Shown here in pieces: positions 33,485-54,300 of a stretch of 64,000 nucleotides of DNA (positions are counted from its first letter, which is position 1; the number at the start of each line of letters is the position of its first letter). This stretch comes from Clostridia bacterium (GTDB lineage: Bacteria; Bacillota; Clostridia; Christensenellales; CAG-1252). The stretch covers positions 15,627-79,626 of the forward strand of contig JAIKVL010000007.1 in NCBI GenBank assembly GCA_024685775.1, read 5' to 3'. The position numbers and the translations under genes are program-made. The notes below the pieces were generated by a model that searched no databases, was not told where the DNA came from, and worked only from the letters and a program-made list of their open reading frames with translations.

Positions 33485-33523
33485 AATCCCGCGTGATTCC
33501 TTCCGGGTGCGCGGGATTTTTTT
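33485..33523 (+). terminator. Rho-independent terminator
   Basis: AATCCCGCG...CGCGGGATT plus T-run. Confidence 0.7.
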
Positions 33524-33573
33524 ACGGGGAGCGACCCTGTTTTTTCCTTGCGGAAAAACGGCGGGCGCGCATA

Positions 33574-33603
33574 TTGACAAAATTTTCGCCAATATGTTAT
33601 TAT
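33574..33603 (+). promoter_or_regulatory. sigma-A promoter of amidase lipoprotein gene
   Basis: TTGACA-18-TATTAT with extended TG. Confidence 0.7.
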
Positions 33604-33662
33604 ATATAATTATAAAACGCACATCCCGCGCGAGGCGCCGATATTCGATCAAGGAGAATACC

Positions 33663-36600
33663 ATGAAAAAAGTTCGCTTTTTATTCGTACTGATTTTTCT
33701 GTTTTTTTGTACGGCGATTTTGATTTCTTGCGGCGGGATCACTTTTTTCAAGAACACAAATACGAAACCCGAAGAGAAAACCCTCGATTTTACGACGGTG
33801 TACGCGATGGCGGAAGACGCGGGCTACACGGGAACGATGGAAGAGCTCGTCGCTCTTTTCAAAGGAGACAGCGCGTATCAAATCGCGGTCGCGAACGGGT
33901 ACAGCGGCAGTGAGCTCGACTGGCTTGCTTCTCTTTCCGGCGCCGCGGGTAAGGACGGGAAGACTCCCGCGATCGGCGCGAATAAGCATTGGTACGTCGG
34001 CGGCGTGGATACCGGCATTTGCGCCGAAGGGAAAGACGGCGTCTCTCCGACAATCGAGATCAATGCGGACGGCTACTGGGTCATCAACGGAATCGCGACG
34101 AATAAAAGAGCGGTCGGGATCGCGGGCGAAGACGGAAAGGACGGCGTAACGCCGACGATCGAGATCAACGAAGAAGGCTATTGGGTCATTAACGGCGTCG
34201 TGTCGAACGTCAAAGCGGCGGGCGAAAAGGGCGCGGACGGCTTGATGCCCGAGATCACGATCAATGCGGAAGGTTACTGGGTCGTCAACGGCGTCGCCAC
34301 CGATAAAAAAGCGGTCGGGACCGCGACGGGCGAGACGATCGTCCCGACGATCGGCGACAATCATCATTGGTACATAGAAGGCGTGGACACCGGCGTCCTC
34401 GCGGAAGGCGTAAACGGATCGAACGGCGCGGATGGCGCAAACGGTAAGTCCGCTTACGAACTCGCCGTGGAGAACGGCTACGTCGGAACCGTCCAAGAAT
34501 GGCTTGCGTCTTTGGTCGGCGCGGCGGGCGAGAACGGAATCGACGGGACGAACGGTAAAGACGGAAAAGACGGAAAAGACGGCGTAACGCCGACGATCGA
34601 AATCAACGAGCAAGGTTACTGGGTCATTAACGGCGTGGTGACGAACGTCAAAGCCGCCGGCGTGGACGGTAAAGACGGCAAGGACGGTAAAGACGGCAAG
34701 GATGGAACGAACGGGATCAACGGTAGCGACGGCGCGAACGGAAAATCCGCGTATGAACTTGCCGTGGAGAACGGATACACGGGTACCGTTCAAGAATGGC
34801 TCGCGTCTTTGGTGGGTGAAGCGGGCGTAAACGGATCGAACGGCGCGAACGGTGCGGACGGAAAATCCGCGTATGAAATCGCGCGCGATCACGGGTACAC
34901 GGGTACCGAAGCGCAATGGCTTGCCTCTTTGGTCGGAGCAACGGGCGCGACGGGCGCGGCGGGGCAAAACGGAATTAACGGAAGTAACGGCGCGGATGGA
35001 AAGTCGGCGTATGAACTCGCCGTGGAAAACGGCTTTAACGGCTCGCTCTCCGAGTGGCTGGACAGCTTGATCGGCGCAGACGGCAAAGACGGACAGGACG
35101 GCAAAGACGGAACGAACGGAATAAACGGCAGCAACGGCGCGAACGGCAAATCCGCTTACGAACTCGCGGTCGAAAACGGCTTTAACGGGTCTCTTACCGA
35201 ATGGCTTGCGTCCTTGGTCGGTGCGACGGGCGCGGCGGGGCAGAACGGCAAAGACGGAAAGGATGGAAAAGACGGGGTCGACGGTACGAACGGAACCGAC
35301 GGCGCGGACGGGAAGTCCGCTTACGAAATCGCGTGCGATCACGGGTACACGGGAACCGTTCAGGAATGGCTTGCTTCCTTGGTCGGCGCGACGGGCGCCG
35401 CAGGGCAGAACGGACAAAACGGGACGAACGGCGCGAACGGAAAGTCCGCGTATGAACTCGCACTGGATCACGGCTATACCGGAACCGAAGCGCAATGGCT
35501 CGCTTCCTTGGTCGGAGCCGCGGGTCAAGACGGAAAAGACGGCAAGGACGGTAAGGACGGCGTAACGCCGACCGTCGAGATCAACGCGCAAGGCTATTGG
35601 GTCATCAACGGCATTCAGACGGCTGTCAAAGCGGTCGGAACGAACGGAACGAACGGGACGAACGGCGTGAACGGACAAGACGGGAAAGACGGAAAAGACG
35701 GCGTCTCGATCGTCAGCGTCGAATGGAATGAAAACAAAGAACTTTTGATCACCTTATCCAGCGGAACGGTTCTGAACATCGGGCAGATTCCCGCCGCGGA
35801 AGGCGACGTCCTCGATTATTATCCCTTGGATAACGGAACGTGGGGCGTAAAAGCGGGCAAAGGCTATTACCTTTCGAGCGTCGTGATCCCCGCGTCTTAC
35901 GAAGGCAAGGCGGTCACGAAGATTCTGCCTTCCGCTTTCGAAGGCGACCGCAATCTCGAAACGATTTCGATTCCTTCTTCGATCGTCGAGATCGGTGAAA
36001 AGGCGTTCTTCGGTTGCGAGAACCTCGCTTCTCTTTCGATCCCCGCGAGCGTAACGCGGATCGACGATTGGGCGTTCCGCGATTGCATGGGACTCGAATC
36101 CATCGAAGTGGCGGCGGGTAATTCGACCTTTGCGGTAAACGAAGGAAAACTTATCAACGGCTTGACGAATAAACTCGTCGCTTGCGTCGTCGGTTCGGTC
36201 TATTATTCGCTCGTGATCGATAATTACGTCGGCGTCGGCGAAGAAAAGACGGTTTCCGTCATTTCCGATTATCTGACTGCGAACGACTTTACCTATTCCG
36301 TTTCCGACGAAAGGATAATCTCTTTCCTCGGGAACTCGTATCAAGGATTGAAGGAAGGCACCGTGACGATCTACGTTACCTTCAACGGCGAGACCGAAAC
36401 CAAAGAGGTCACCGTCAAGGAAGTCCGTTATTTGTCCTTTGATTTGGACGGCGGCTCGGCGGTCGATCTCCCCGATAGAGTCTATGCGGGGACGACGGTC
36501 GATCTCCCCGTCGGCACGAAAGACGGCTATCAGTTCGCGGGTTGGTTCGTCTCGTCCTCTTTTGCGGGCGATCCCGTGACCACGCTTTCGGATCAAAATG

Positions 36601-38657
36601 CGAACGTTACTTCGTTGTACGCCCGCTTCGATAAGCTCTACACCGTTACTTTCCGCTATACGCGCGGCGGTAATCCCTATTTTGCGACCGTCGAATCGAC
36701 GTATATCGGCGGGTACACGCTTTTGCATCCGACCTATGATTCCGCCGTCGAATATTTCAGCGGCTGGTTCCTGGACGAAGATTTCGTGGACGAAGTAACG
36801 GAGATCCCCGAAGGTTTCGGCACGGATCTCGAACTTTACGGTGCGTTCGTCAGCGCGACTTCTCAGATCACTCTGACCTTCGTCGCGACGGGCGGGACGA
36901 TCTCGGGTGACAGCGTCGTCGAATGCCTGCCCGGCTATGATTCGTATCCGACCGCGACGCACCCGCACTTCGAATTCGGCGGCTGGTATCAAGACAGTAA
37001 CTGCACGATCCCCGCTTCGCCGCGCGCATTCAGGACGCAGACGCTTTACGCCTATTTCTACGAGGTAACGGCGGTCGATTCGATCTCGATCGATTTCCCC
37101 GAAGCGGAAGTCGTCCTCGGCGGAACGGCGACTCTTCCCTACACGCTGTATCCCTCTACGGTCACCGTCCGAGCCGTAACCTTCGAATCGAGTAATCCGA
37201 GCGTCTTGACCATCGACGAGAACGGCGTTATGACGGCGCACGCCGTCGGTTTCGCGACCGTTACCGTGACTTCGCTTTCGTCCTCCGGCGCGTCCGCGAG
37301 CCTTGAAATCGAAGTCTTTACCGAACCGAACACGATCTCCGCGGCGTACGACACCGATTCCTTCGTTATGGTCGGGAACACGATCACGCTCAGCGCGAAC
37401 GCGCACGTTCGCCGCGTCGACGATCCGACCCTGACTTGGACGAGTTTGGATCCCGCGATCGCGGCGGTTTCTTCGGACGGCGTCGTAACGGGCATTTCGG
37501 ACGGGTACGTCCTGATTCGTGTCAGCACGGAGGAAAAGCCGAGCTTACATTTCGACATCGGCGTAACGGTCTATGCGGCGGATAACCCGCTCCGCTCGAT
37601 CATCGAGTCTAACCACAGCGTCGTTGGAAGCGTAAAGAACCTCGGCATCGGAGCAGGCACTCCCGCGTATTACGTCGACTTGTACGAAAGCATCAACGGC
37701 GCACTTTTCAATAATACCTACGAGATCCTCCGCACCTACGAGACCAAGGCGAATAACAATACGCAAAACCACGGCGCGGCGAGATCCTCTACCGAATTCA
37801 TCACCGTCCACTATACGGGCAATATGGCGTCGAGCGCGGGTGCGAAGAACAATTCGAGCGCGCTTGCGAACTCCACGAGCGCGAGCATCCATTACGTCGT
37901 CGGTAACGATGGAATCTATCATAACCTGAACGACAGCAAGATCGCCTATCACGCAGGCGACGGATCGAGAACGGTTGCTTGGTCGGCTACGGGCGTGTAC
38001 GTTCAGGAAGGGGATCCCGAGTGTCCGGTTTGGGGCGTCTCCGGGACGAAGTTTACGATCAACGGCAGGACGACGACCGTTTCGCTTCCCTCCGACGTTC
38101 CTTCCGCGAAGAGGTCGGCGGCGTACTTCAACGATATGGGCTTTGGTTATAAGATCGTAAACGGGCAATACTATATGAACGCGACTTGGTGGTGTACCTC
38201 GCAAGTCTCGGCGGGTCGTATCGTTAACCACGGCGGTAACCGCAATTCGATCGGTATCGAGACCGCCGTCAATAAGGGCAGCGATCTCTGGCTGACTTGG
38301 CATTACACCGCGCAACTCGTCGCGAGACTGATGATTACCTACAATCTTCCGATCGAGCGCGTCGTCGGTCACCACTTCTTTACCGCGAAGGATTGCCCGC
38401 AACCGCTCCTTGAAAACGAGCTTGAACTTTGGTGGAGATTCATTGAGTGCGTCAAGACGGAATACGCGATCTTGACCGAGCTCGAAGGCGCAACCGTGTC
38501 GATGGCGCTCGTCGGCGAGTACGAGAACGTTACCGAGAACGGTCGCGTGACCGCGGGAACGAGTACGGACGAGTTTATTACCTACGACGTGACGGTGACG
38601 ACCGCGGGCGGCGTCTCCACGACGGTTCGACTGACTTCTCTTCTGAAAGCGGAATAA
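33663..38657 (+). CDS. 1664-aa lipoprotein: collagen-like stalk, BspA LRR, InlB-B repeats, Ig-like domains, C-terminal N-acetylmuramoyl-L-alanine amidase (Amidase_2)
   Basis: SD AAGGAG, lipobox LISC; G-X-Y and GKSAYELA repeats; LRR IGEKAFFGCENLASLSIP; FDLDGG...FAGW; Big_2 VTFESSNPSV; amidase ITVHYT, HAGD, SIGIE, GHH, KDCP. Confidence 0.88.
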   Translation: MKKVRFLFVLIFLFFCTAILISCGGITFFKNTNTKPEEKTLDFTTVYAMAEDAGYTGTMEELVALFKGDSAYQIAVANGYSGSELDWLASLSGAAGKDGKTPAIGANKHWYVGGVDTGICAEGKDGVSPTIEINADGYWVINGIATNKRAVGIAGEDGKDGVTPTIEINEEGYWVINGVVSNVKAAGEKGADGLMPEITINAEGYWVVNGVATDKKAVGTATGETIVPTIGDNHHWYIEGVDTGVLAEGVNGSNGADGANGKSAYELAVENGYVGTVQEWLASLVGAAGENGIDGTNGKDGKDGKDGVTPTIEINEQGYWVINGVVTNVKAAGVDGKDGKDGKDGKDGTNGINGSDGANGKSAYELAVENGYTGTVQEWLASLVGEAGVNGSNGANGADGKSAYEIARDHGYTGTEAQWLASLVGATGATGAAGQNGINGSNGADGKSAYELAVENGFNGSLSEWLDSLIGADGKDGQDGKDGTNGINGSNGANGKSAYELAVENGFNGSLTEWLASLVGATGAAGQNGKDGKDGKDGVDGTNGTDGADGKSAYEIACDHGYTGTVQEWLASLVGATGAAGQNGQNGTNGANGKSAYELALDHGYTGTEAQWLASLVGAAGQDGKDGKDGKDGVTPTVEINAQGYWVINGIQTAVKAVGTNGTNGTNGVNGQDGKDGKDGVSIVSVEWNENKELLITLSSGTVLNIGQIPAAEGDVLDYYPLDNGTWGVKAGKGYYLSSVVIPASYEGKAVTKILPSAFEGDRNLETISIPSSIVEIGEKAFFGCENLASLSIPASVTRIDDWAFRDCMGLESIEVAAGNSTFAVNEGKLINGLTNKLVACVVGSVYYSLVIDNYVGVGEEKTVSVISDYLTANDFTYSVSDERIISFLGNSYQGLKEGTVTIYVTFNGETETKEVTVKEVRYLSFDLDGGSAVDLPDRVYAGTTVDLPVGTKDGYQFAGWFVSSSFAGDPVTTLSDQNANVTSLYARFDKLYTVTFRYTRGGNPYFATVESTYIGGYTLLHPTYDSAVEYFSGWFLDEDFVDEVTEIPEGFGTDLELYGAFVSATSQITLTFVATGGTISGDSVVECLPGYDSYPTATHPHFEFGGWYQDSNCTIPASPRAFRTQTLYAYFYEVTAVDSISIDFPEAEVVLGGTATLPYTLYPSTVTVRAVTFESSNPSVLTIDENGVMTAHAVGFATVTVTSLSSSGASASLEIEVFTEPNTISAAYDTDSFVMVGNTITLSANAHVRRVDDPTLTWTSLDPAIAAVSSDGVVTGISDGYVLIRVSTEEKPSLHFDIGVTVYAADNPLRSIIESNHSVVGSVKNLGIGAGTPAYYVDLYESINGALFNNTYEILRTYETKANNNTQNHGAARSSTEFITVHYTGNMASSAGAKNNSSALANSTSASIHYVVGNDGIYHNLNDSKIAYHAGDGSRTVAWSATGVYVQEGDPECPVWGVSGTKFTINGRTTTVSLPSDVPSAKRSAAYFNDMGFGYKIVNGQYYMNATWWCTSQVSAGRIVNHGGNRNSIGIETAVNKGSDLWLTWHYTAQLVARLMITYNLPIERVVGHHFFTAKDCPQPLLENELELWWRFIECVKTEYAILTELEGATVSMALVGEYENVTENGRVTAGTSTDEFITYDVTVTTAGGVSTTVRLTSLLKAE
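33790..35720 (+). repeat. coding repeats: 8 G(K/D)SAY...WL.SL.G units and 7 P.I..N..W...G..T units interleaved with Gly-X-Y triplets
   Basis: Counted in the translation; imperfect DNA repeats in frame. Confidence 0.9.
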
Positions 38658-39556: not shown

Positions 39557-39598
39557 AAAAAAGGGTTTTACCGAAAGAAAGGTAAAGCCCTTTTTTTT
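39557..39598. terminator. bidirectional terminator between convergent surface-protein genes
   Basis: AAAAAAGGGTTTTACC-gaaagaaa-GGTAAAGCCCTTTTTT. Confidence 0.85.
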
Positions 39599-39707
39599 GT
39601 ATTCGTTCATCGCGCGGATCTCCGCAAGCCCGTTTTCGCGCTTCGTTTACGCGATCCGAAGATCGGATGCGCGGCGCTAGCGAAGCGGGGCAGGTCGCAT
39701 CCTCGCT

Positions 39708-42700
39708 TTATTTGACGATGAGGATGATGAAGCGATGCCCCGTCGCGCTTCCGTAGGTCAGCGTCTCGCGGATGAAGTAGACCCTGCCGCTGTAACCCGC
39801 GCTATTCAGCGAGGAAGAGACTTTGCTCGAAGCGGTGTCCAAAGAGGCGCAATAGGATGATTCGATAAAGAAATCGAAGGTGAACGTCACCGTGGACGCG
39901 CTTTGAATTTGCGGCAAAACGACCGCGATCAGGTCGCCGAATTCGGCGTCGCTCGAAATTACGAGGTCGTTGGAAGAGGACGCGGGCGCCGTCCCGTAAT
40001 GGACGAACGAGAAGGGATTGGATTGCGTGATCGCCGCGCAACTCGATTCCGCATAGTTATCGGCGGTATAGCCGAGAGGATCGGTCTTCGTCGCGTCGCT
40101 GATCAGGAAGCTTTCGAGGTTCAGGATCTCGCAATTAGAAGAATCGGTCGGGATCACCGATTCGAGGTTTGCGTGCGTCGTGTCCAAAACGAACCATTTC
40201 TTAACGCCGCTTCCGTCGTCAATCCAAACGCGGTTCCAAGCGTGTTCGTCTCCGATGACGCGGATGCATTTGATGTCTTCGAGACCCGCGAGGATCGAAA
40301 CGGCTTTTGCGATGCCGTCGCAGATCGCTTTCTTATAGATAAAGACGCCTTCGACAGACCACGCCGTGCAATGCGCCCATTCGAAAGAAGCTTGATCCGA
40401 AGCGTCGGAAGCCCCGTAATCGTAGCCGACTTCCTCGACCATCCATTGCAGGATCGCATACAACTTTTGAACGTCGGTCATTTGATCGGTTATGATCGAG
40501 CGATTGATCTCTTTCGCGATATTCAGCATCGCTTCCGCGGCGGATCCCGAAACGGGGATGGGTTTATAGCCGTGGGAGAAGGCGTAAAAGAGTTGATCCG
40601 AGGTCGTTACCGAGACCGTGTTCGAACGGGATAGATAGGGGAAATCGTTAAACGAGCCGCTTCTCGCCGCTCCGACGGGGGCGATCCTCAAAAAGTCTTG
40701 TTGCGGGTAAATACGGGAATCGTAATCGTCGGGAGTTATGGTGTTTACTTTGCTGAACGAGAAGTCGGCGTTGTCGGCGCAGTTTACGCGGAAATAGCGG
40801 ATCGTCGAGCCCGAAGTCATCGTGTAAAAATTCGGTACCCACGTCTGCGCGGTCATAAGCGCCATTGCGGATTCCAAGATCGATGAATAGTTCGAAGTCG
40901 TCGCGCCGGGATAGGAGAAGTATTTGTTCGTCGTGATCATATTGAAGACCATATAATCGAGGAACATCGCGAGTTCTTTTATAGATCCGATCTCGATCAA
41001 GGTCGAGGAATTGTTGCCGCGCGAAGAGAATTCCGTGGTGTAATCCAAGAGTTCGTCTCGCTGGCAGGCTTTGCAGGTATAGGCTTCGTAGACGTGGCTT
41101 CCGAGCGCGCCGCCCGCCGAAGAGGAGAACGCGTCGCTGCAACGGGAACAAGCGTAATTATCCTGCGCATATTCGATGCAGGTCGCGGGAGTCGTGCTCG
41201 TCAAGACGTAATCGTGACCGAGCGCGGGAGTCGCCGCATAGGTCGAATAATCGCAGAGCGAGCAGGTCTGATAAGCGGCGTAGCCCGGAGACGTGCAAGT
41301 GGCGGGTTGCGCGCTATGCGAGACCAGCTGATGCGGGGAGGTCGGGCAGGAGGAGATGGCGAGATCTCCCGTCTGGTTACTTCCGTTGTTGCTGAAAATA
41401 ATCTGCGTCGCTCTCTTGTCCACGTCGATGAAATACCACCCCGTGTGGGTCGAGTCCGCGGTCATCGCCGTTCCCGGCCAGCCGCCGAGATAAGGCGTGT
41501 TTCCGTCTCCCCAAGCATAGGCGTAAACCGAGCCCCATCCGTTTTCGTTATGATAATAGACCGTATTGGTCGTGGATTCCGCGGGGTAATCCGCCGTCCA
41601 AACTCCGTCCTTATAATAGGGCGAGGAGAAGGAGATCGTCAGATCGTCCGTTTGCTGGCTTTGGTTTGAACCGTTCGAGAAGATGATCTTTTCGGCTTTG
41701 GTGTTGACCGAGACGGAGAACCAATTTTCGTGCTCGCCGACCGCGGTCATCGCCGTTCCCGCCCAGTCGCCGAGATATTTGGTCTCGTTTCCCGAAGTCC
41801 CGCTCCAAGCATAGGCTTTGACCGAATTCCAACCGTTCGAGTTATAGTAGTAGATCGTCTCGAAAGTGTCGACGCCCGCGGGCGCGCTCATCGAAGCAAC
41901 GCTGAGTATGCGAGAGCTTCCGATCGACGACGGGGTAAACGCCGCGGACTCTTGCAGGACGGTCGAGACGTTCGTCTCGTCGCAGCGCAGGAGCTTGAAG
42001 GACGAGACCGTCTTCGAGAGATTGCGGACGCTATCCCAGTTTATGGTATACGTGCGACCGTCCGTCTCCGTCTTGACGAAAGCACCCGCATCCGTCGTTA
42101 CGGACGAAGAATCGGTATAGTCGATCGCAAGCCTAAGGACCGAGCCGCTTTCCGTATAGCCGCCCCAAAGGATCTTGAAGGTCAGCGCGTAATACGGAGT
42201 GCGTTCGTTCGCGGAGATCTCCGTAAGATCGCTTTCCGACAAGGTCAGTTTATGCGTAAAGCCCAAGGGCAGGCTCGACGTCTTGTTGAACATATACGTT
42301 CCCGCGGCGTTCATTCGGACGATGACGACCGAGGAGACCGCTTTTTGAGCGTCCGTCGAGTAGGTGTAGGTGTTCGCCTTGGTGCGGGTCATTGCCGCGC
42401 CGGGGTAGGGGGCGTTCGTCGAATTATCCGAATAGGTGACGAAGATATTCGCGCGGCAGTTATCCGCTTCGAACCAAGTCACCGCCGAGGTGTCGAGCGT
42501 CAAAGCTCCCGTCCAAGCGTCCATCGAGGGGATCGAGATGGTGCGCGTCGTGCCGATGCTGTCGCGGTCGGTAGACTCGTTCCAGACGATATCGTTATTC
42601 GCAGGGTCGCAGCGCAGAAGTTTGAACTTGGAAACGGTCTTGTTCGGGTCAAGGGTCGCGTTCCAATCGATCGTGTAGGTCTCGCTGTCCGTTTCGGTCT

Positions 42701-45700
42701 TTACGAGCGCGGAAGCGGGTGTCGTAACTTCCGTTCCGTCGGTATACAGAATGTTGACGCGCGGGACGGCGCCGTTATCGGCAAAATTCGCCCAAGTGAT
42801 CTTGAAGGTCAAAGCATAGTAGGGCGTGCGTTTCGTCGAAGCGATGTCGGAGAGCGCGCTTGAAGCAAGGGCGATCGTGTGATTCGCGGGGATATTCGCC
42901 GCCGCGATCGCCGCCGTCTGGTTATACATATAGGTGCCCGCGTTATTCATACGGACGATCTGCACGGAAGAGATCGTCTTCGTCAGATCCGTTTGGACGG
43001 TATAGACGTTCGCCGCGGCGCGGGTCATCGCCGCGCCGGGGTAGGGAGCGTTCGTCGATTCGTCCGAATAAGTAATAACGATATGCGCGCGGCAATCATT
43101 GTCTTCGAACCAAGTCACCGCGGACGTGTTGACGGTCAGCAATCCTTCCCAAGGATAATCTTCCGTCCAAGCGCCGTTTTTATAGTAAGGAGTCGAGAAA
43201 TCAAGGGTCAGATCGTTCGTCTTGTTATTCTGATTCGAACCGTTCGAGAAGATGACGTTTACGGCTTTGGTGTTGACCGAGACGGAGAACCATTTCTCGT
43301 GTCCGCTGACTGCGGTCATCGCCGTTCCGGGGAAGGCTTCGAGGTAATTTACCGTGTTTGCGCCCGATCCGCTCCAAGCGTAGGCTTTGACGGAAGGCCA
43401 ATTGTTTTCGTTATAGTAGTAGATCGTCTCGAAGGTGTCGGGAACGACGGTCGAGGTCATCGAAGAAACGGCGATGACGCGCGACGCGCCGATATCGCTC
43501 GGCGTAAAGGAGTCGGATTCGTGGAGGACCGTGTCGGGAGCGGACGAACTGCAACGGAGAAGTTTGAAGGAAGAGATCGTCTTATTCGCGTCGATCGCAT
43601 TATTCCAGTGGATCGTGTAGACGTTCGCGTCGGCTTCGGTCTTTACGAGGGATCCCGCGGCGGTCGTTACGGACGAGCTGTCTCCGTAAAGGATCTGCAC
43701 GCGGAGGACCGAGCCGCTTTGGACGTACTCGCTCCAAGTGACGTTGAAGGTCAAGGCGCAAGACGGAGTGCGTTCGTTCGTGGGGATCTCCGTAAGGTCG
43801 GTTTCCGCGAGGACGTATTTATGAGAGAATCGATAAGGCAGGTTCGAGGTCTTATTATAGAGATAGGTTCCCGCGTTGTTCGTGCGGATGAACGCGATCG
43901 AGGAGACCGCCTTCGCGGGATCCGTCGAGTAGGAGTATGTATTTGCGGAAGATCTCGTCATCGCTTCGCCTGGGTAAGCGGCGTTCGTCGTGTTGTCCGA
44001 ATAGGTGACGAAGATATGTGCGCGGCAGTTATCCGTCTCGAACCAAGACACGGAGGAAGTATTCAGCGTTAGGGCGCCCGTCCAAGCGCTCATCGAAGAG
44101 ACGGTAGTTATGCGCGACTCGGGAAGATTGCGTTCGGACGATTCGTTCCAAACGATATCGTTGTTCGTCGGGTCGCAGCGCAGGAGCTTTACTTTGGAGA
44201 CCGTCTTGTTCGGATCGACGATCGCGTCAAAGTTCATCGTGTAGGTCTCGCTGCTCGTTTCGGTCTTGGAGAGAGCGGAAGCGGGCGTCGTGAGCTCCGT
44301 TCCGTCGGTGTATTGAATATTGACGCGTGGGACGGCGCCGTCTGCGGAGAACGTCTGATCCCAAGTTACCTTGAAGGTCAAAGCATAGTAGGGCGTGCGG
44401 TTCGACGTCGAAATGTTGGAGAGCGCGTTCGAAGCGAGCGTGATCGTGTGATCCGCGGGGATGTTCGCCGCCGCGATCGCCGTCTGGTTGTACATATAGG
44501 TGCCCGCGTTGTTCATTCGGACGATCTGCACGGAAGAGATCGTCTTGGTTTCGTCCGTGAGATAGGTGTAAACGCCCGCGGAGACTCTCGTCATCGCCGC
44601 GCCGGGGTAGGGAGCGTTCGTCGATTCGTCCGAATAGGTGACGGTGATAAAGGCGCGGCAGTCGTCGTCTTCAAACCAGGTGATTTGGGAAGTATTTACC
44701 GTGAGCGTTCCGTCCCACGGGAAGTCCGCCGTCCAAACGCCGTACTTATAGTAAGGCGTGGCGAAATCGAGGGTCAGATCGCTCGTCTTGTCGGTTTGAT
44801 CCGAGCCGTTCGAGAAGATAATGCTTTCGGCTTTGGTGTTGACCGAAGCGGAGAACCAACCGCTATGCCCGCTGACGGCGGTCATCGCCGTTCCGGGGAA
44901 GGCTTCGAGGTAATCTACCGTGCTTGCGTCCGATCCGCTCCAAGCGTAGGCTTTGACGGTCGACCAACCGTTCGAGTTATAATAGTAAATCGTCTCGAAC
45001 GTGTCGGGGATGACGGGTTCCGCCATCGAATCGACGGTAATGCGGCGCGAGGACGTGATATTCGCCGTCGTAAAGGATGAAGATTCTTGCAAGACGGTAT
45101 CGGGATCCGTCGCGTCGCAGCGCAGAAGTTTGAAGGACGAGATCGTCTTGTTCGCGTCGATCGCGTTATTCCAATGGATCGTGTAAGTATTCGAGTCGGC
45201 TTCGGTCTTTACGAGCGCGTTTGCGGCGGTCGTCACGGAAGTTTCGTCCGAATAGAAGATTCTGACTCGGAGGACGGAACCGCTCTCGGAGTACTCGCTC
45301 CAAGTGACGTTAAAGGTCAAGGCGTAATAGGGCGTGCGGTTGCTTGCCGCCATATCGTTGAATTTGCTTGATGTCAGGCTCAACGTGTGCGTTTCGGGGA
45401 TCGAGGTGATGTTGCCCGTCTTGTGGTACATATAGGTGCCCGCATTGTTCATTTGAACGACGACGACTTTGGAAATCGTCTTCGCGGTGTCGGTTTGGAC
45501 GGTGTAAACGCCCGCCGCCGTCCTTGTCATCGCGACCCCGGGGTAGAGGGCGTTCGTCGAATCGTCCGAATAGGTGACGGTGATAAAGGCGCGGCAGTCG
45601 TCGTCTTCGAACCAAGTGATCTTGGTAAGGTCGACGGTAAAGACGCCGTCCCACGGGAGATCCGCCGTCCAAACGCCGTTCTTATGGTAAGGCGTCGTGA

Positions 45701-47981
45701 AATCGAGGGTCAGGTCGCTCGTCTTGTCGGTTTGATCCGAGCCGTTCGAGAAGATAACGTTTTCGGCTTTGGTATTGACCGAAATGCTCCACCATCCGTC
45801 GTGTCCGCTGACGGCGGTCATCGTCGTTCCGGGGAAGGCTTCGAGGTAATCTACCGTGTTTGCGCCCGATCCGCTCCAAGCGTAGGCTTTGACGGACGAC
45901 CAGCCGTTCGAGTTATAGTAGTAGATCGTCTCGAAAGTGTCGGGCGCGATGGGCGCGGACATCGAAGAGACGGTGAGAATGCGAGACGCGCCGATATTGC
46001 TCGTCGTAAAGGATTGGGATTCGTGGAGCACCGTGTCGGGATCTGTCGAATCGCAGCGCAGGAGCTTAAAGGACGAGATCGTCTTGTTCGCGTCGATCGC
46101 GTTATTCCAATGGATCGTGTAGGTGTTGCTGCTCGTTTCGGTCTTTGCGAAAGCACCCGCCGCCGTCGTTACGGAAGTTTCGTCGGAGTAAAGGATCTTC
46201 GCGCGGAGGACCGAGCCGCTCTGGGCGTACTCGCTCCAAGTGACGTTGAATGTCAAAGCGTAAGACGGGGTGCGTTCGTTCGCCGCGATCTCCGCAAGAT
46301 CGGTTTCCGCGAAAGTGAATTTATGCGAGAAACGGTAAGGCAGACTCTCGGTCTTGTTGTAAAGATAGGTACCTGCGTTGTTCGTGCGGATAAACACGAT
46401 CGAGGAGACTGCTTTCGAGGAATCCGTCGAATAGGTGTAGTTGTTCGCGGAAGATCTCGTCATCGCGACTCCGGGGTAGGCGGCGTTCGTCGAATTATCC
46501 GAATAGGTGACGAAGATATTCGCGCGGCAGTTATCCGTCTCGAACCAAGACACGGAGGAAGTATTCAGCGTTAGGGCGCCCGTCCAAGCGCTCATCGAAG
46601 AGACGGTAGTTATGCGCGACTCGGGAAGATTGCGCTCGGACGATTCGTTCCAAACGATATCGTTGTTCGTCGGATCACAGCGCAAGAGTTTGATCTTGGA
46701 GACCGTCTTGTTCGGATCGACGATCGCGTCAAAGTTCATCGTGTAGGTCTCGCTGTCCGCCTCGGTCTTAACGAGAGCGGAAGCCGCCGTCGTGAGTTCC
46801 GTTCCGTCCGCATAGAGAACGGTCGCGCGCGGAACTGCGCCGTCCGCCGCGAAGTCCGCCCAGGTTACCTTGAAGGTCAAAGCGTAGTAGGGCGTGCGAT
46901 TGGAAACGGAGATCGTGCTGAACGCGCTTTCCGCGAGGGAGAGTTTGTGGCTGAACACGGCGGGCAAATTGCCGGTCTTGTTATACATATAGGTGCCCGC
47001 GCCGTTCATTCGGATGATGACGATCGAGGAGACCGCCTTCGCGGGATTCATCGAATAGGTGTAAGTATTCGCCTTGGTGCGCGTCATCGCCTCGCCGGGG
47101 TAGGCGGCGTTCGTCGTGCTGTCCGAATAGGTGACGAAGATGTTCGCGCGGCAGTTATCCGTCTCGAACCAAGAGACCGCGGAAGTGTCGAGCGTCAAGG
47201 CTCCCGACCAATCGTTCATCGTAGAGATCGTGGTATAGCGCGAGTTGGCGAGAGAGGTGCGATCCGGAGATTCGTTCCAGATGATATCGGGATTCGCGGG
47301 GTCGCAGCGGAGCAGGCGGAAGGACTTCATCGTCTTATTCGGATCGATGATGGCGTTCCAATTCATCGTGTAGGTGTTCGAATCGGTTTCCGTCTTGACG
47401 AGCTCCGAAGTCGAGGTCGTGTACTCCGAATTGTCGGTGTAAAGGATATTGACGCGAGGGACCGCGTTTCCTTCGCTGAAATTCGCCCAAGTAATTTTAA
47501 ACGTGTACGCGTAGTAGGGCGTGCGGCTGTTTACTCCGATGTTCGTGAGGTTGCCCGCCGCGAGCGCGATCGTGTGATCCGCGGGGATGTTCGCCGCGGC
47601 GATCGTCGCTTTGTTATACATATAGGTGCCCGCGTTATTCATTCGGACGATCTGCACGGAAGAAATCGTCTTATCGGGATCCGTCTGCGTGGTGTATGTG
47701 TTCGCGGCGGAGCGCGTCATCGCGACTCCGGGGTAGGGCGCGTTCGTCGATTCGTCCGAATAGGTGACGGTGATAAAGGCGCGGCAATCGCTATCTTCGA
47801 ACCAAGTAACGGCGGAAGTGTCGAGAGCGAGTGTTCCGTCCCACTTTTCAACGGCGGAGATCGAAACGGAAATCGGCGACGGCGCGGTCGAGAAGACGGC
47901 GTACGCTGCGCCGATCAGCGCGCAGCAAATTAAAAGCGCGGCAAGAAATAATACGGATTTGGTTAAAGTTCTGTTTCCCAT
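39708..47981 (-). CDS. 2757-aa secreted repeat protein: 8 novel A-B module pairs, 5 CBM26-like starch-binding modules, Cys-rich ATC repeats, C-terminal transglutaminase-like domain
   Basis: SD AAAGGAG, signal peptide ending AAYA; C modules YYN.NGW..V.AYAW...PG..M...W....IFSNG...T.DL; TGase ICDGIA, HAWNRV, VLDTT. Confidence 0.88.
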   Translation of the reverse strand: MGNRTLTKSVLFLAALLICCALIGAAYAVFSTAPSPISVSISAVEKWDGTLALDTSAVTWFEDSDCRAFITVTYSDESTNAPYPGVAMTRSAANTYTTQTDPDKTISSVQIVRMNNAGTYMYNKATIAAANIPADHTIALAAGNLTNIGVNSRTPYYAYTFKITWANFSEGNAVPRVNILYTDNSEYTTSTSELVKTETDSNTYTMNWNAIIDPNKTMKSFRLLRCDPANPDIIWNESPDRTSLANSRYTTISTMNDWSGALTLDTSAVSWFETDNCRANIFVTYSDSTTNAAYPGEAMTRTKANTYTYSMNPAKAVSSIVIIRMNGAGTYMYNKTGNLPAVFSHKLSLAESAFSTISVSNRTPYYALTFKVTWADFAADGAVPRATVLYADGTELTTAASALVKTEADSETYTMNFDAIVDPNKTVSKIKLLRCDPTNNDIVWNESSERNLPESRITTVSSMSAWTGALTLNTSSVSWFETDNCRANIFVTYSDNSTNAAYPGVAMTRSSANNYTYSTDSSKAVSSIVFIRTNNAGTYLYNKTESLPYRFSHKFTFAETDLAEIAANERTPSYALTFNVTWSEYAQSGSVLRAKILYSDETSVTTAAGAFAKTETSSNTYTIHWNNAIDANKTISSFKLLRCDSTDPDTVLHESQSFTTSNIGASRILTVSSMSAPIAPDTFETIYYYNSNGWSSVKAYAWSGSGANTVDYLEAFPGTTMTAVSGHDGWWSISVNTKAENVIFSNGSDQTDKTSDLTLDFTTPYHKNGVWTADLPWDGVFTVDLTKITWFEDDDCRAFITVTYSDDSTNALYPGVAMTRTAAGVYTVQTDTAKTISKVVVVQMNNAGTYMYHKTGNITSIPETHTLSLTSSKFNDMAASNRTPYYALTFNVTWSEYSESGSVLRVRIFYSDETSVTTAANALVKTEADSNTYTIHWNNAIDANKTISSFKLLRCDATDPDTVLQESSSFTTANITSSRRITVDSMAEPVIPDTFETIYYYNSNGWSTVKAYAWSGSDASTVDYLEAFPGTAMTAVSGHSGWFSASVNTKAESIIFSNGSDQTDKTSDLTLDFATPYYKYGVWTADFPWDGTLTVNTSQITWFEDDDCRAFITVTYSDESTNAPYPGAAMTRVSAGVYTYLTDETKTISSVQIVRMNNAGTYMYNQTAIAAANIPADHTITLASNALSNISTSNRTPYYALTFKVTWDQTFSADGAVPRVNIQYTDGTELTTPASALSKTETSSETYTMNFDAIVDPNKTVSKVKLLRCDPTNNDIVWNESSERNLPESRITTVSSMSAWTGALTLNTSSVSWFETDNCRAHIFVTYSDNTTNAAYPGEAMTRSSANTYSYSTDPAKAVSSIAFIRTNNAGTYLYNKTSNLPYRFSHKYVLAETDLTEIPTNERTPSCALTFNVTWSEYVQSGSVLRVQILYGDSSSVTTAAGSLVKTEADANVYTIHWNNAIDANKTISSFKLLRCSSSAPDTVLHESDSFTPSDIGASRVIAVSSMTSTVVPDTFETIYYYNENNWPSVKAYAWSGSGANTVNYLEAFPGTAMTAVSGHEKWFSVSVNTKAVNVIFSNGSNQNNKTNDLTLDFSTPYYKNGAWTEDYPWEGLLTVNTSAVTWFEDNDCRAHIVITYSDESTNAPYPGAAMTRAAANVYTVQTDLTKTISSVQIVRMNNAGTYMYNQTAAIAAANIPANHTIALASSALSDIASTKRTPYYALTFKITWANFADNGAVPRVNILYTDGTEVTTPASALVKTETDSETYTIDWNATLDPNKTVSKFKLLRCDPANNDIVWNESTDRDSIGTTRTISIPSMDAWTGALTLDTSAVTWFEADNCRANIFVTYSDNSTNAPYPGAAMTRTKANTYTYSTDAQKAVSSVVIVRMNAAGTYMFNKTSSLPLGFTHKLTLSESDLTEISANERTPYYALTFKILWGGYTESGSVLRLAIDYTDSSSVTTDAGAFVKTETDGRTYTINWDSVRNLSKTVSSFKLLRCDETNVSTVLQESAAFTPSSIGSSRILSVASMSAPAGVDTFETIYYYNSNGWNSVKAYAWSGTSGNETKYLGDWAGTAMTAVGEHENWFSVSVNTKAEKIIFSNGSNQSQQTDDLTISFSSPYYKDGVWTADYPAESTTNTVYYHNENGWGSVYAYAWGDGNTPYLGGWPGTAMTADSTHTGWYFIDVDKRATQIIFSNNGSNQTGDLAISSCPTSPHQLVSHSAQPATCTSPGYAAYQTCSLCDYSTYAATPALGHDYVLTSTTPATCIEYAQDNYACSRCSDAFSSSAGGALGSHVYEAYTCKACQRDELLDYTTEFSSRGNNSSTLIEIGSIKELAMFLDYMVFNMITTNKYFSYPGATTSNYSSILESAMALMTAQTWVPNFYTMTSGSTIRYFRVNCADNADFSFSKVNTITPDDYDSRIYPQQDFLRIAPVGAARSGSFNDFPYLSRSNTVSVTTSDQLFYAFSHGYKPIPVSGSAAEAMLNIAKEINRSIITDQMTDVQKLYAILQWMVEEVGYDYGASDASDQASFEWAHCTAWSVEGVFIYKKAICDGIAKAVSILAGLEDIKCIRVIGDEHAWNRVWIDDGSGVKKWFVLDTTHANLESVIPTDSSNCEILNLESFLISDATKTDPLGYTADNYAESSCAAITQSNPFSFVHYGTAPASSSNDLVISSDAEFGDLIAVVLPQIQSASTVTFTFDFFIESSYCASLDTASSKVSSSLNSAGYSGRVYFIRETLTYGSATGHRFIILIVK
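41340..47843 (-). repeat. coding tandem array (AB)3-C-(AB)-C-(AB)2-C-(AB)2-C-C
   Basis: Module boundaries read from the translation; includes a 152-bp repeat with one mismatch at 44020-44171 and 46522-46673. Confidence 0.9.
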
Positions 47982-48291
47982 GGGGCTCCTTTCTTCGGGG
48001 TTGATTCGACTCTCTTACGGTTGATTTTCGATCGGATCTTGTGTGACCGATACGCATGCGGCGAAGCAAGGAGAAGGAAAACCCTTCGGTCTGCGAAAAA
48101 TCGCCGCCGTCCGCGGAAAAACGCGGAGCTTATATTATTTTACAACTTATACTGTATAAATTGCAATAGTAAGGCGAAAATGCATATATTTTATTCATTT
48201 TGTATAAAACGGCTGAATAATCGTTCCGCTTTGCGCGGCTCGTCGCAAAACGGGATGAGTGGCGAAAGGCTTTTCGGGAGCGGGGAAGAAT

Positions 48292-48323
48292 AAAAAAACG
48301 CGGGACTTTTCATCCCGCGCTTT
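48292..48323 (-). terminator. terminator of diguanylate cyclase gene
   Basis: Minus strand CGCGGGA-tgaaaag-TCCCGCG plus T7. Confidence 0.8.
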
Positions 48324-48329
48324 ATGCGA

Positions 48330-49712
48330 TCAATTCTTTTTCGAATCCTTGTCTTTTTCGTGCGTCTGCCGTTTTTGCTCGTACATCCGCTTATCGGCGA
48401 CGCGCATCAGCTTCTTGAAGCTGTTTTCGTCCGATTCGGTCGCGTAAGCGTAGCCGACGGAAACGCTGATATGCTCGCGCTCGATCGCGAAATTGAAATG
48501 GTCCACGCGCGTCTTGATCTCTTCTTCGGAGCAATCGCGAAGGATCGCCGCGAATTCGTCGCCGCCGATGCGGTAGCAGTTGCCCGCGTTTCCTTTGCTG
48601 AAACACTCGCAAATGCAGGAGCCGGTGGTTTGGATGAGCTTATCGCCCGCGAGGTGACCTTGCGTGTCGTTTACGCGTTTCAAATAGTTTACGTCGAAAA
48701 GGATGACCGCCATCGGTCCGCCGCTTTCGTTTCTTTCGAGAAGGTTACATTCCAAGCTGTAACGGTTGGGCATCCCGGTCAACGCGTCGGTTTCGGCGGC
48801 GGAGCGCAGGATGGTTTCGAGTTTATTTCTGCGGAACAAAAGTTCGTTATACGCGCCCGCCATTAAGCGAAGCTCGCGGATCCCGCCTTGTTTTTTGAGG
48901 TTTTGGTCGGAAGCGATCAAGTTGCTGTATCTGCGGAGCGGCATAATGAGCCAATGGAAGAAGAAGATGAACGTAACGACCGAGATCGCGATGATCGCGA
49001 TGATGACCGACCAAAGGGCGACGCGCAGTTTTTGGATGCGCTCTTCGCTCTCGACGGCGGATTTTGTGAATTCGTCCTGAATGGTCTTATTGCAATTCGT
49101 TGCGTTTTGGTTCAATAAAACCTTGGCGGAGCTGTAATTCGTATCGAGAATCAGCTGTTTCGCCGTCTCGATGCGTTGCGCGGGCGTCATCGCCTCTTCC
49201 TCTTCGGTCAGGGGGACGGAGGGGATCGCGGTCAGCGCGGGGATCGGGGGGAGCGCGTAGACGGAGCGCATCAAAGATAAAGCGTGGATTTGAAGGTCGA
49301 TCAGCTCCTGCGCTTTTGCCGCCGCGTCGTTTAGAAAAGTCTGAACGGCGGAACTGACGTTATGCTGTTTGAATTGTTCGACGAAATAGGGGCCTCTGTG
49401 TTCCTCAATGGTAAGTTCGCCGCTGTATGCGATCAAATATCCGAAATTCAAGGTTCCGTCTTCGCTAACCGGCATCGAGATAAAAGCGGTCATCGTTTCG
49501 GAGAGTTTGCTCGCGCCCGCCTGCAATTCCGTGACTTGGTTTTGGTACGCGATCGATTGATTCATCGAATCGGTCAGTCGGTTCGTGGCGTGGTTAACGT
49601 CGTAAACGAGGGCGACGATCGTGCCGTACAAAATCGTGAGGATGACGATAAGAGGAACGACGAACGAGTTCGCTGCGAAACCATCGGGTTTGGTTGTTCT
49701 CTTGTCTTTCAT
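48330..49712 (-). CDS. membrane-bound diguanylate cyclase (GGDEF)
   Basis: Two TM segments flanking an extracellular domain; ETDALTGMPNR, FDVNYLKRVNDTQGHLAGD, YRIGGDEF. Confidence 0.93.
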   Translation of the reverse strand: MKDKRTTKPDGFAANSFVVPLIVILTILYGTIVALVYDVNHATNRLTDSMNQSIAYQNQVTELQAGASKLSETMTAFISMPVSEDGTLNFGYLIAYSGELTIEEHRGPYFVEQFKQHNVSSAVQTFLNDAAAKAQELIDLQIHALSLMRSVYALPPIPALTAIPSVPLTEEEEAMTPAQRIETAKQLILDTNYSSAKVLLNQNATNCNKTIQDEFTKSAVESEERIQKLRVALWSVIIAIIAISVVTFIFFFHWLIMPLRRYSNLIASDQNLKKQGGIRELRLMAGAYNELLFRRNKLETILRSAAETDALTGMPNRYSLECNLLERNESGGPMAVILFDVNYLKRVNDTQGHLAGDKLIQTTGSCICECFSKGNAGNCYRIGGDEFAAILRDCSEEEIKTRVDHFNFAIEREHISVSVGYAYATESDENSFKKLMRVADKRMYEQKRQTHEKDKDSKKN

Positions 49713-51338: not shown

Positions 51339-54300
51339 ATGAAGATCGATTTTGAAAATGAACCTTTGGTTTCGGTTCTCGTATTCGGGAAAAAATCACA
51401 GAAACTGAACGACAACGAGAGGTCTGTTTTAAATAACCAGACGTATAAAAACCTGCAAACCGTTATCGTTCCCGACGAAGGCAAAACGATAGAAGGAATT
51501 ATTGAAGCGCTTTCCCTTGTGAAAGGTGAATACGTTTGTTTTTGGGATATCAATAATTTGCTTTCCAAAGATTTCATTCGCGCGTTGGTCGTCGCTGCGA
51601 ACGATTCCGGCGCGGACTTCGTTCTTTCCGACGTCAGTAGAGTAGAAGACGAAAAATATATGGAGTATAACCTCGATCCGTTGCGCCGAGCGGATCTCTC
51701 TAAAAAAGGGAATGAAATCATCAATTTTTTTGTGGAGTACTGGTTTCGCTTTTGGGGCGTGTACGACGTTTGGAATAAACTGATTCGGTCCTCGCTTATC
51801 GCTCCGATTTCGGATTGTCTGAATACGTATTCGACTTATAAGAATAACGACGAGGGTTTTCAGACGATTTCCAGATACGTTTTGTCCTTTTCCATTTGGA
51901 ATTCGGCAACCTATCTTATAAACGAGCATAACGTCTACGCCTATTGCCGTAGGGCGCCTCGGATGACTTCCGCGCCGCTTAAAACGATCAGGCAATTCAA
52001 AAAGTTGTATGAGATTCTTTTCTGCGCGCTGAGAATGAACGACGTGGATGATCGGGGGTTAAGGATATACTTGGGGCGTTTCGTCGCTTCGGAATTTTCT
52101 CTTGATTTGAGGAATAATGCGATCTATAACGAGTTGAAGTATTTTTCTGCGGAGCCGACCTGTCTTCAAAAATCCGATCAATATTTTTACAGCGCGGAAA
52201 CCAAGATTCCGAATATTTTTCACGTTGAGGAACGTTTGAAATTGGCGATCGCCGACCCGAAGACCAAAGTCGTCAGTTTCGATATGTTCGACACGTTGGT
52301 TTATCGTCCGCTGTTTTATACGATCGACGTTTTCAGTTTGTTGAATAAAGATTTTAACGATAGGATCAAATCCACTTCCGTCGTTGACTTCGCCTATTTG
52401 AGACAGACTGCGGAGAAAGTCGCGCGAGAGAATGCGAGAAAGAAAAAAATCGAAGAAATAACGATCTACGATATTTATAGGACGCTCCACAGACTTTACG
52501 GGATCGAAGAAGAGGTTTGTACTTATATGCTGAATCGCGAGTTGGAAACGGAACTTTCCGTTTGCAAGGCGAAGCCGAGCATGAAGAAAATCTTCGATTT
52601 GGCGAATTATTATAAGAAAACGATCCTTATTTCCACGGATATGTATCTTCCCGCAGAAACGATCCATAAGATCCTTGCGGCGAACGGGTACGAGAATTAC
52701 AGACTGTATCTTTCCTCCGAGCTGAAAAAGACCAAAGGCAGCGGCGCGATGTTCAAGAAAATCATTGAAGATTTCAAAGCGGAAAATTGCTTGCCTTCGG
52801 AGATTATCCATATCGGGGATAATTATTCTTCCGACTTTAAAAACGCGCAGGAAAAAGGACTGGTCGCATTTCATATCAATAGTTCCGTGAACGTCTTTAA
52901 GGGGGGAAATCTTACTTGTTACGGCGGCGAGAGCTATAAGAATTTGTACACAAAGAATACGTTCTTTGCGAAAAATCAATGGCAGATCGACCATTACTTG
53001 GGTTTGAGAATGTTCTGCGGGTTGGTCGCCAATAAATGCTTCGATTATCCCGCAATCTCTATGAACGGCGATTCCGATTTTGATGCGAATCCTAATTACG
53101 TCGGATACTATTGTCTCGGCGGTCTGCTCTTGGGCTTAACGAGATGGCTTTTGGATGAGACGAAGAACAAGGGCGTTTCGACGATCCATTTCGTCGCCCG
53201 AGACGGATGGCTTCTCAAACGCTTCTACGATATATATACCGCAAATATGCCCGACGCGCCGAAATCGAATTATCTTTATATTTCGAGAAAGTCGCTTTTT
53301 ACGTTGGACATAAACGGAGTAGACGACTTGTTAGCGGTGTTGAATAATAAGTTGTCCGCAAACGCAAGTTCGCCGAGAAAGATTCTCGACCTTTTGAAAC
53401 CGATCATTAAGAAAGATCAGTTCAAGCGCTTGCAACTCGAAGTAATGCGCGATTACGATTACGAAGCGCCTTTCGAGAAGAATATCAATTACACGTATTT
53501 CATCACGGCTTTTATTCGCAAGAACAAAAACTGCTTTGATTTCGTAACGGATAAGGAACGCGCGCGTGCATATTTCGGTGAGATCATTAAAGAGGGAGAC
53601 GTCCTCTTTGACGCAGGTTACACCGGGCGAAGCGAATCGACGATTTCTTCTCTTCTCGGGTTTCCCGTCAATGCGTTTTATCTTCATTCGAACGGAGACG
53701 TCTTGGATCAGAGAGAACAGCGCTTCGGTTTCGAGACGAAATGTTTCTATCCTTGGCGCCCGAATAATACGGGAATTATTCGCGAACACGTCTTGATGGA
53801 ATATGCTCCTTCGGTAATAGGCTACGATTTTGACGCCGAAGGAAATAAAGTCGTTTTCGGTGAATTCCAAGAGGACGTTTGCGTGAAATGGTTTACCGAG
53901 AGATTGCAGTCCGCCGCGTTGGATTTTTGCCGGGACTTTTTGGATGCTTTCGGAAACTATTTGGATCGTTTTTACGTCAGCAATTATACGCTGTCGATGC
54001 CGATGGAATACTTCCTCCATATGGCGAAGCCGTTTGATCGGAAAATCTTCGAAGCGCTGTCTTTCGAGGATGATATCGGCGTGGGCGGGACGACCAATGC
54101 GACGGATTTTTGGCAAAGCAAAATATCCGAGTTGAACGCCAATCTTATGTCTGCAAAGAAGGGCGCGGCTCCCTCGTCTTCGGATAAACAGAAGGGGACG
54201 TTTGAACTCGTCGACAATAACGTTTTGAAACGGATTACGGACGGGTTGAAACTTCCGCCGCAACCGCTTGTTAAAGTAAAGGAAAAGAGAAAGAATAAGA

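Follow-up and report, generated by a model that had tools for sequence, protein, structure and literature searches.

Here we describe a gene on the minus strand (39708-47981) of a window of 64,000 nucleotides from the contig JAIKVL010000007.1 (positions 15,627 to 79,626) of an uncultured Christensenellales bacterium, which encodes a 2757 amino acid protein. The product has an N-terminal signal, 21 β-sandwich modules (five of the starch-binding family CBM26 and 16 modules of two further kinds, which we call A and B), Cys-rich repeats and a C-terminal transglutaminase-fold module. We give somewhat better than even chances to the explanation that this is a starch-granule-targeted cysteine hydrolase or transamidase that acts on protein. 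According to this explanation, an exported, probably Sec-cleaved and fibre-like protein of a bacterium from ruminant and other herbivore guts would concentrate a cysteine enzyme on starch granules through its CBM26 array, and the amide bonds of proteins would be attacked there, most likely by hydrolysis of granule-surface or matrix proteins and less likely by transamidation or cross-linking. The gene itself would have arisen in this lineage when modules from the organism's own starch locus were joined to a cassette that forms the constant C-terminal end of a widespread, membrane-tethered family. The parts are of known kinds; what is new is how they are combined, and the degenerate spacers derived from CBM26.

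The C-terminal transglutaminase-fold module and its family

The C-terminal module is 448 amino acids long (aa 2310-2757; 39711-41054, minus strand) and was recognised by sequence profiles, AlphaFold2 (AF2) and Foldseek. It is built of an N-terminal α/β subdomain, a papain-like core that holds the triad and a C-terminal α/β subdomain. For the 2757-aa protein itself the Transglut_core model (PF01841) scores 22.6 bits, just below the cut-off of 23, and a search of the PDB with the single sequence of the module gave no matches. Homologues of the module exceed the Pfam cut-off (37-92 bits), and precomputed PF01841 matches exist on the relatives. The family profile finds in the PDB 9crn, which is TglA of S. 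pyogenes (E 3.9e-17), and 4xz7 from S. suis (E 1e-05), with the triads aligned. The AF2 model, made from an alignment of 20 sequences, has a pLDDT of 87.5 and a pTM of 0.89, and Foldseek gives a probability of 1.00 to 9crn and 4xz7 and 0.99 to 3isr. The transglutaminase homology is secured by the 9crn profile match, the Foldseek matches and the family members above the cut-off, despite the low Pfam score.

The triad consists of Cys2554 (TGC, 40320-40322), His2580 (CAC, 40242-40244) and Asp2600 (GAC, 40182-40184), in register with the AMC, H and D of 4xz7 and with 9crn; these codons lie exactly at 40320, 40242 and 40182, where a first-pass annotation made from the sequence had placed them. When the relatives from 80 genome loci are aligned (81 sequences), the Cys is found in all 81, the His in 79 and the Asp in 80, and six family-specific residues (E235, G236, D246, K250, W273 and T293 in module numbering) are also almost invariant. 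Because the triad and the six surrounding residues are almost invariant, we infer that the module is probably a catalytically competent, apparently active cysteine enzyme of clan CA. Such invariance is unexpected for a pseudo-enzyme, and it makes it very improbable that the protein is a non-catalytic starch adhesin, in which this module would be a pseudo-enzyme or a binding domain and the whole protein would hold granules in the manner of Sas6 and Sas20 of R. bromii. What speaks for such an adhesin is the lack of a glycoside hydrolase (GH), the Pfam score just below the cut-off and the Sas6/Sas20 literature, by which multivalent CBM26 arrays alone suffice for adhesion.

An exhaustive phmmer search returned 1,576 cluster representatives of this large, uncharacterised family at E ≤ 1e-3 and 817 with the stricter limit of E ≤ 1e-10, counted as clusters at 50% identity, and the match is almost always C-terminal in proteins of 500-4000 aa. 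The 80 loci come almost all from uncultured Christensenella, Christensenellaceae, Catabacter, Christensenellales and unclassified 'Clostridia' metagenome-assembled genomes from the gut. Among 75 complete family members, 58 have a lipobox signal and the remainder a transmembrane (TM) helix, and the usual design is therefore a membrane tether, followed by a stalk of Flg_new and/or Cys repeats, with the enzyme at the far end. Two paralogues were found in the same genome. The close one, of the usual design, is a lipoprotein of 1379 aa in which 13 Cys-rich repeats were counted (G000:C18:8692-12831, L003) and which matches the module with an E-value of 3e-141, and the more distant one is a 784-aa lipoprotein with a Pro-rich linker (G000:C7:21737-24091, L004). 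The Christensenellales lipoproteins labelled 'Transglutaminase domain-containing' or 'InlB B-repeat-containing' (P0003, P0013 and P0123) share the 450-aa cassette at 31-54% identity and have Cys-rich repeats in front of it, as in the 2757-aa protein. They differ from it in their lipobox or TM N-termini and their Flg_new or Cys-repeat stalks, and those examined have neither CBM26 nor A-B units.

CBM26 was absent from the family members examined and the A-B unit was found in only four of the 401 genomes of the order; the fusion of CBM26 to a transglutaminase fold, which was seen in this species and one close strain only, is thus specific to the lineage. The starch array is the novelty, apparently grafted onto an existing enzyme family. 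The enzyme module itself is a widespread cassette that usually sits on non-starch stalks.

The stalk element directly before the module is formed by 2.5 copies of a Cys-rich repeat (aa 2212-2309; 41055-41348, minus strand), and in a sequence search most matches were confined to this repeat region. Its motif, 'H..PATC..G....C..C', is common to hundreds of large Clostridia surface proteins, and the ~45-aa repeat ('H...PATC..G....CxxC...ALGH') has no Pfam model. The very large Clostridia surface proteins that carry it (P0004-P0120) have varied enzymatic heads. We consider the repeat a candidate new stalk domain, possibly a metal-binding one.

The wide occurrence of the cassette on membrane-tethered stalks without any carbohydrate-binding module (CBM) suggests a general cell-surface task, and an envelope-directed enzyme can be considered on this ground. 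Here the module would be an amidase, endopeptidase or maturation protease that acts on wall peptides or surface proteins of the cell itself or of competitors, and the starch array would merely position it. The related clan-CA enzymes PeiW and PeiP, which cleave the isopeptide bonds of pseudomurein (PMC10318531), fit this option. Yet no conserved neighbour for wall synthesis or secretion and no wall-binding domain accompany the module, which is separated from the N-terminus by ~2,300 residues and, once the signal is cleaved, is probably released from the cell, so we hold the option to be distinctly unlikely. When the neighbours were compared over the 80 genome loci, each neighbour family was seen in 12 loci at most; those that recur (a MacB-like ABC/FtsX transporter, a hexapeptide acetyltransferase, GH3, a sigma factor and an aminotransferase) were set aside as unrelated housekeeping genes that lie far from the paralogues of this genome.

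Reaction type, export and anchoring

Some indications on the reaction come from the solved relatives, but the nearest characterised one, from S. suis, has been described with both kinds of activity, apparently for one protein. The S. suis protein 4xz7 was reported to be an active transglutaminase (Yu et al. 2015, as cited in PMC10318531 and PMC13656463) with Cys-302 as its catalytic residue (PMC5612097). IgdE of S. suis, on which MEROPS family C113 was founded, was described as an endopeptidase with high specificity for IgG and with an AxC motif at residues 300-302 (PMC5066943). The shared Cys-302 and the AxC motif suggest that 4xz7 and IgdE are the same protein. PF01841 covers C110, C111 and C113, and the 2757-aa protein also has the AxC motif, as AIC. 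The S. suis enzyme (SsTGase/IgdE) resembles the module in its transglutaminase-core fold, AxC motif, aligned Cys-His-Asp and extracellular location in a Firmicute. The similarity is only remote, with a profile match over ~100 residues (E 1e-05) and a Foldseek identity of 15%, and the S. suis enzyme acts on host IgG, has no CBMs and differs in its flanking subdomains. The best solved relative is TglA (9crn), for which Foldseek covers the helical lead-in and the core (E 1e-07, TM-score 0.50 on the target), although the identity is only 11% and TglA is a single-module protein of 379 residues. Our literature search found no paper on the function of S. pyogenes TglA and none that pairs CBM26 with a transglutaminase. 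By analogy, hydrolysis is weakly favoured over cross-linking, because proteolysis is the activity of the relative that is documented better and because the family needs no such module for its anchoring.

The N-terminal signal peptide (aa 1-28; 47898-47981, minus strand) starts with MGNRTLTK, followed by a hydrophobic core and an AYA motif that ends at residue 28, with VF after it. It lies in the sole hydrophobic segment of the protein (aa 4-35), the only Kyte-Doolittle window above 1.6. A lipoprotein reading was rejected, since the LLICC sequence puts I or C at the -1 position of either Cys, which gives no lipobox (pattern [LVI][ASTVI][GAS]C at the end of the signal peptide). No LPXTG motif and no C-terminal hydrophobic segment were found in the protein, and Pfam shows neither dockerin nor cohesin in it. 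We regard it as fairly probable, from the sequence, that the signal is cleaved and the protein released; an uncleaved signal anchor may be the alternative. Sortase, SLH and dockerin are missing from the whole genome, which is 97% complete, so that the missing anchor is the rule for this organism. The earlier remark that no LPXTG, SLH or dockerin anchor was recognised was thus right as to the absence, which is genome-wide and not special to this protein.

The loss here of the lipobox of the family would make other means of retention useful, and this is one reason to consider a cross-linking adhesin. In such a mechanism Gln-Lys isopeptide bonds would fix the starch-bound protein to the envelope or matrix, or would glue granule proteins and cells together as a biofilm. 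The fold and the triad are those of transglutaminases, and the reported transglutaminase activity of 4xz7 also agrees with this. On the other side, the relatives are already tethered by lipobox or TM helix, so anchoring is not what the module evolved for, PMC5066943 showed the S. suis enzyme that we take to be 4xz7 to be a specific endopeptidase, and the array is poor in Gln (1.2%). Because most relatives and the surface proteins of this organism are tethered N-terminally, the idea of the transglutaminase-fold domain as a covalent anchor is weakened, and we find the cross-linking adhesin unlikely. Both functions that had been put forward in the first-pass annotation, a starch-targeted protease and a cross-linking adhesin, are compatible with the evidence, and it is the anchoring part of the latter that loses ground.

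The putative starch-binding array and its degenerate modules

The body of the protein is formed by the 21 modules between the signal and the Cys-rich repeats. The Pfam CBM26 model (PF16738) matches over five stretches with an E-value of 1.7e-78 and 259 bits against a cut-off of 28.1; the best stretch spans model positions 1-68 of 70, and single modules reach 53-64 bits each in a genome scan. By Pfam and the genome scan, all on the minus strand, module 1 covers aa 681-774 (45660-45941), module 2 aa 993-1086 (44724-45005) and module 3 aa 1515-1608 (43158-43439), and modules 4 and 5 stand in tandem (41349-41870) at aa 2038-2135 (41577-41870) and aa 2136-2211 (41349-41576). The limits given earlier for the five modules agree with ours within a few codons. 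The CBM26 binding platform, which we defined from the Sas6 paper, consists of a YxY/YxW on strand 2 and the Trp of a WPG motif, which is essential in LaCBM26 (W32) and in Sas6 (W63). Module 5 has the fully canonical YxY...WPG platform (YAYAW...GWPG) and module 4 retains the Trp (YAW...DWAG), while in modules 1-3, with YAW...AFPG (YxW plus FPG), Phe replaces it. From these motifs we infer that the five modules would bind α-glucan and starch granules multivalently.

No GH, SLH, dockerin or LPXTG was found in the protein by Pfam, NCBIfam and motif scan; a GH13 domain is lacking, and GH13 genes lie elsewhere in the genome. Together with Pfam, motif and codon checks these results bear out the anatomy first proposed, i.e., a signal, five CBM26 modules, Cys-rich repeats, an intact Cys-His-Asp and neither GH nor a classical anchor. 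Tandem CBM26 arrays attached to GH13 are known from the L. amylovorus α-amylase and from Amy13K of E. rectale, the latter anchored by sortase. The array described here resembles them in its repeated CBM26 and its predicted multivalent binding of granular starch, but here the array is coupled to a cysteine enzyme with the transglutaminase fold, in a genome that lacks sortase. Sas6 and Sas20 of R. bromii, a gut Firmicute, are likewise exported, lack GH and hold starch granules by CBM26-type modules. They are small proteins with a CBM74 or a dockerin that join a cohesin scaffold, whereas the 2757-aa protein lacks a dockerin, combines five CBM26 with 16 degenerate modules and ends in a cysteine-enzyme module.

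The remaining modules are arranged as eight A-B units of ~210 aa, which make up ~60% of the protein and had not been recognised in the first-pass annotation. Units 1-3 (aa 45-255, 256-463 and 464-680; 45942-47849) follow the signal peptide and were delimited by alignment, AF2 and hhalign; by alignment, unit 4 (aa 775-992; 45006-45659), units 5-6 (aa 1087-1297 and 1298-1514; 43440-44723) and units 7-8 (aa 1609-1820 and 1821-2037; 41871-43157) alternate with the CBM26 modules on the minus strand. The AF2 prediction shows each unit as two β-sandwiches (pLDDT 83.7). Single-sequence searches of Pfam, NCBIfam and PDB gave no match to them, and a fold search with the model returned only weak, low-TM matches (the tandem CBM41 of SpuA, pilins and antibodies), which are generic and can be used no further than for 'two β-sandwiches'. 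A pilin-like isopeptide reading was dropped, as no conserved Lys/Asn/Glu set exists in the right strands.

A link to CBM26 is provided by CBM26-like bridge modules in two lipoproteins (865 and 1102 aa) on another contig of the genome, C38. With hhalign, run on non-overlapping profile sets, the A modules match the bridge modules with 99.7% probability and the B modules with 97.1%, and the bridge modules match canonical CBM26 with 91.5%, whereas A against canonical CBM26 directly gives merely 19%. The Pfam CBM26 model matches one bridge module at 27.3 bits, and the bridge modules retain the CBM26 platform (YxW plus [W/Y/F]PG). In all eight A modules YxW has become TxT and only the Tyr of a YPG is left, so that two of the three platform aromatics are lost. 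Since the modules are homologous to the bridge modules and have lost the stacking aromatics, we read A and B as decayed derivatives of CBM26, linked to it distantly and transitively through the bridge modules, and they should not be filed as CBM26; the sixteen modules are most likely rigid spacers. Such a decay of CBM26 modules into spacers matters for the counting of starch-binding modules in annotation.

The A-like modules also connect the protein to starch utilisation. Within the genome they occur, beyond the 2757-aa protein, only in a complete Gram-positive starch-utilisation locus on contig C38 (G000:C38:9084-36444, L001 and L002). This locus encodes a 955-aa GH13, a GH13+CBM48 enzyme, MalK and a maltodextrin ABC transporter, and in addition the 865-aa and 1102-aa lipoproteins, the latter with a CBM26 and four A-like modules, an 1847-aa lipoprotein that carries ten CBM26 and a single A-like module, and a lone 257-aa protein of a signal peptide and one A-B unit. 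The signal peptide of the latter is near-identical to that of the 2757-aa protein; both proteins lack a lipobox and have the AxA site at the same position, unlike the lipoproteins of the locus, which carry lipoboxes. Among other large proteins, P0002 was the only one found with A-B units.

The number of A-B units appears to differ between strains. P0002 has ~2.5 unit blocks more than the 2757-aa protein, and in a gut metagenome DNA run one contig leaves out 624 nt, exactly the length of one A-B unit (46303-46928), and a second contig join skips 3786 nt (43824-47611). These observations point to a variable copy number, and for the skips a repeat ambiguity of short contigs is also possible.

Several points weigh against the starch-targeted enzyme that we favour, besides the Pfam score of the module. 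The affinity of CBM26 modules 1-3 may be low, as judged by the Phe at the position of Trp32 in LaCBM26. Most family members have no CBM, so a starch-specific native substrate of the enzyme is improbable and its target could be the envelope of the cell itself, and no conserved neighbour points to a substrate. The sequence gives no separation of a hydrolase from a transamidase. Finally, the short contigs of three bovine metatranscriptomes that map on the gene at 95-99% identity suggest that it is transcribed, but carried-over DNA may be among them.

Starch digestion is held to be limited by the coat or matrix of protein that surrounds the granules, both in grain-fed ruminants and in resistant starch in general. 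If the starch-targeted enzyme is real, a protein-modifying enzyme addressed to starch would represent a new type of accessory factor in starch colonisation, beside amylases and passive binders, and it would give the first functional handle on a family of ~1,576 clusters of stalked transglutaminase-fold proteins. These belong mostly to Christensenellales, a gut order that is of interest for health and of which few surface proteins have been characterised. A bolder proposal, which we put forward only tentatively, is that this is the first CBM-targeted transglutaminase-fold enzyme, a recent fusion in one lineage that either strips the protein coat of granules or endosperm or fixes itself and the cell covalently to that coat. 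If the module is inactive or acts on the own envelope only, the protein is just a large starch adhesin.

The gene, its flanks and its occurrence

The open reading frame (ORF) is uninterrupted over its 2757 aa in the translation of the window, and it is a real gene that is probably expressed. Its own upstream region (47982-48330, minus strand), read directly from the sequence, contains the terminator of the preceding gene, an AT-rich promoter-like stretch and a Shine-Dalgarno sequence, AAAGGAG, ~6 nt 5' of the ATG. The preceding gene, a GGDEF gene (48330-49712), ends with a hairpin followed by a T-run. At the other side, a putative bidirectional terminator (39557-39599), a hairpin with A- and T-runs on both sides, lies between the convergent genes. 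This arrangement indicates a monocistronic gene, a separate transcription unit.

An independent assembly encodes P0002, a protein of 3280 aa whose parts follow in the same order and which is 98% identical over its C-terminal part; since the same architecture is found there, the ORF is not a chimera. The DNA of the repeat copies is merely 60-86% identical, and the protein motifs are kept in spite of this, so the repeat array is old and has been maintained. An assembly chimera or collapsed repeats were ruled out by this low repeat identity together with P0002. Near-identical DNA is present in bovine, sheep and other gut metagenomes.

Several neighbours and other large genes were also noted. The convergent neighbour (33507-38657, plus strand) encodes a protein of 1716 aa in which collagen triple-helix repeats, LRR_5, Flg_new and Big_2 are combined with a C-terminal Amidase_2 domain, a further stalked surface enzyme with the same design logic as the 2757-aa protein. 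A 1683-aa glycosyltransferase (HAD + GT4 + GT8) is encoded at 51339-56390 (plus strand), after a UDP-glucose dehydrogenase gene, and the low GC content around it (~44-46% vs 55%) suggests a surface-polysaccharide island. For a genome of 1.7 Mb the load of giant ORFs is unusual, with products of 6322, 5729, 3418, 2757, 2723, 2674 and 2628 aa and more.

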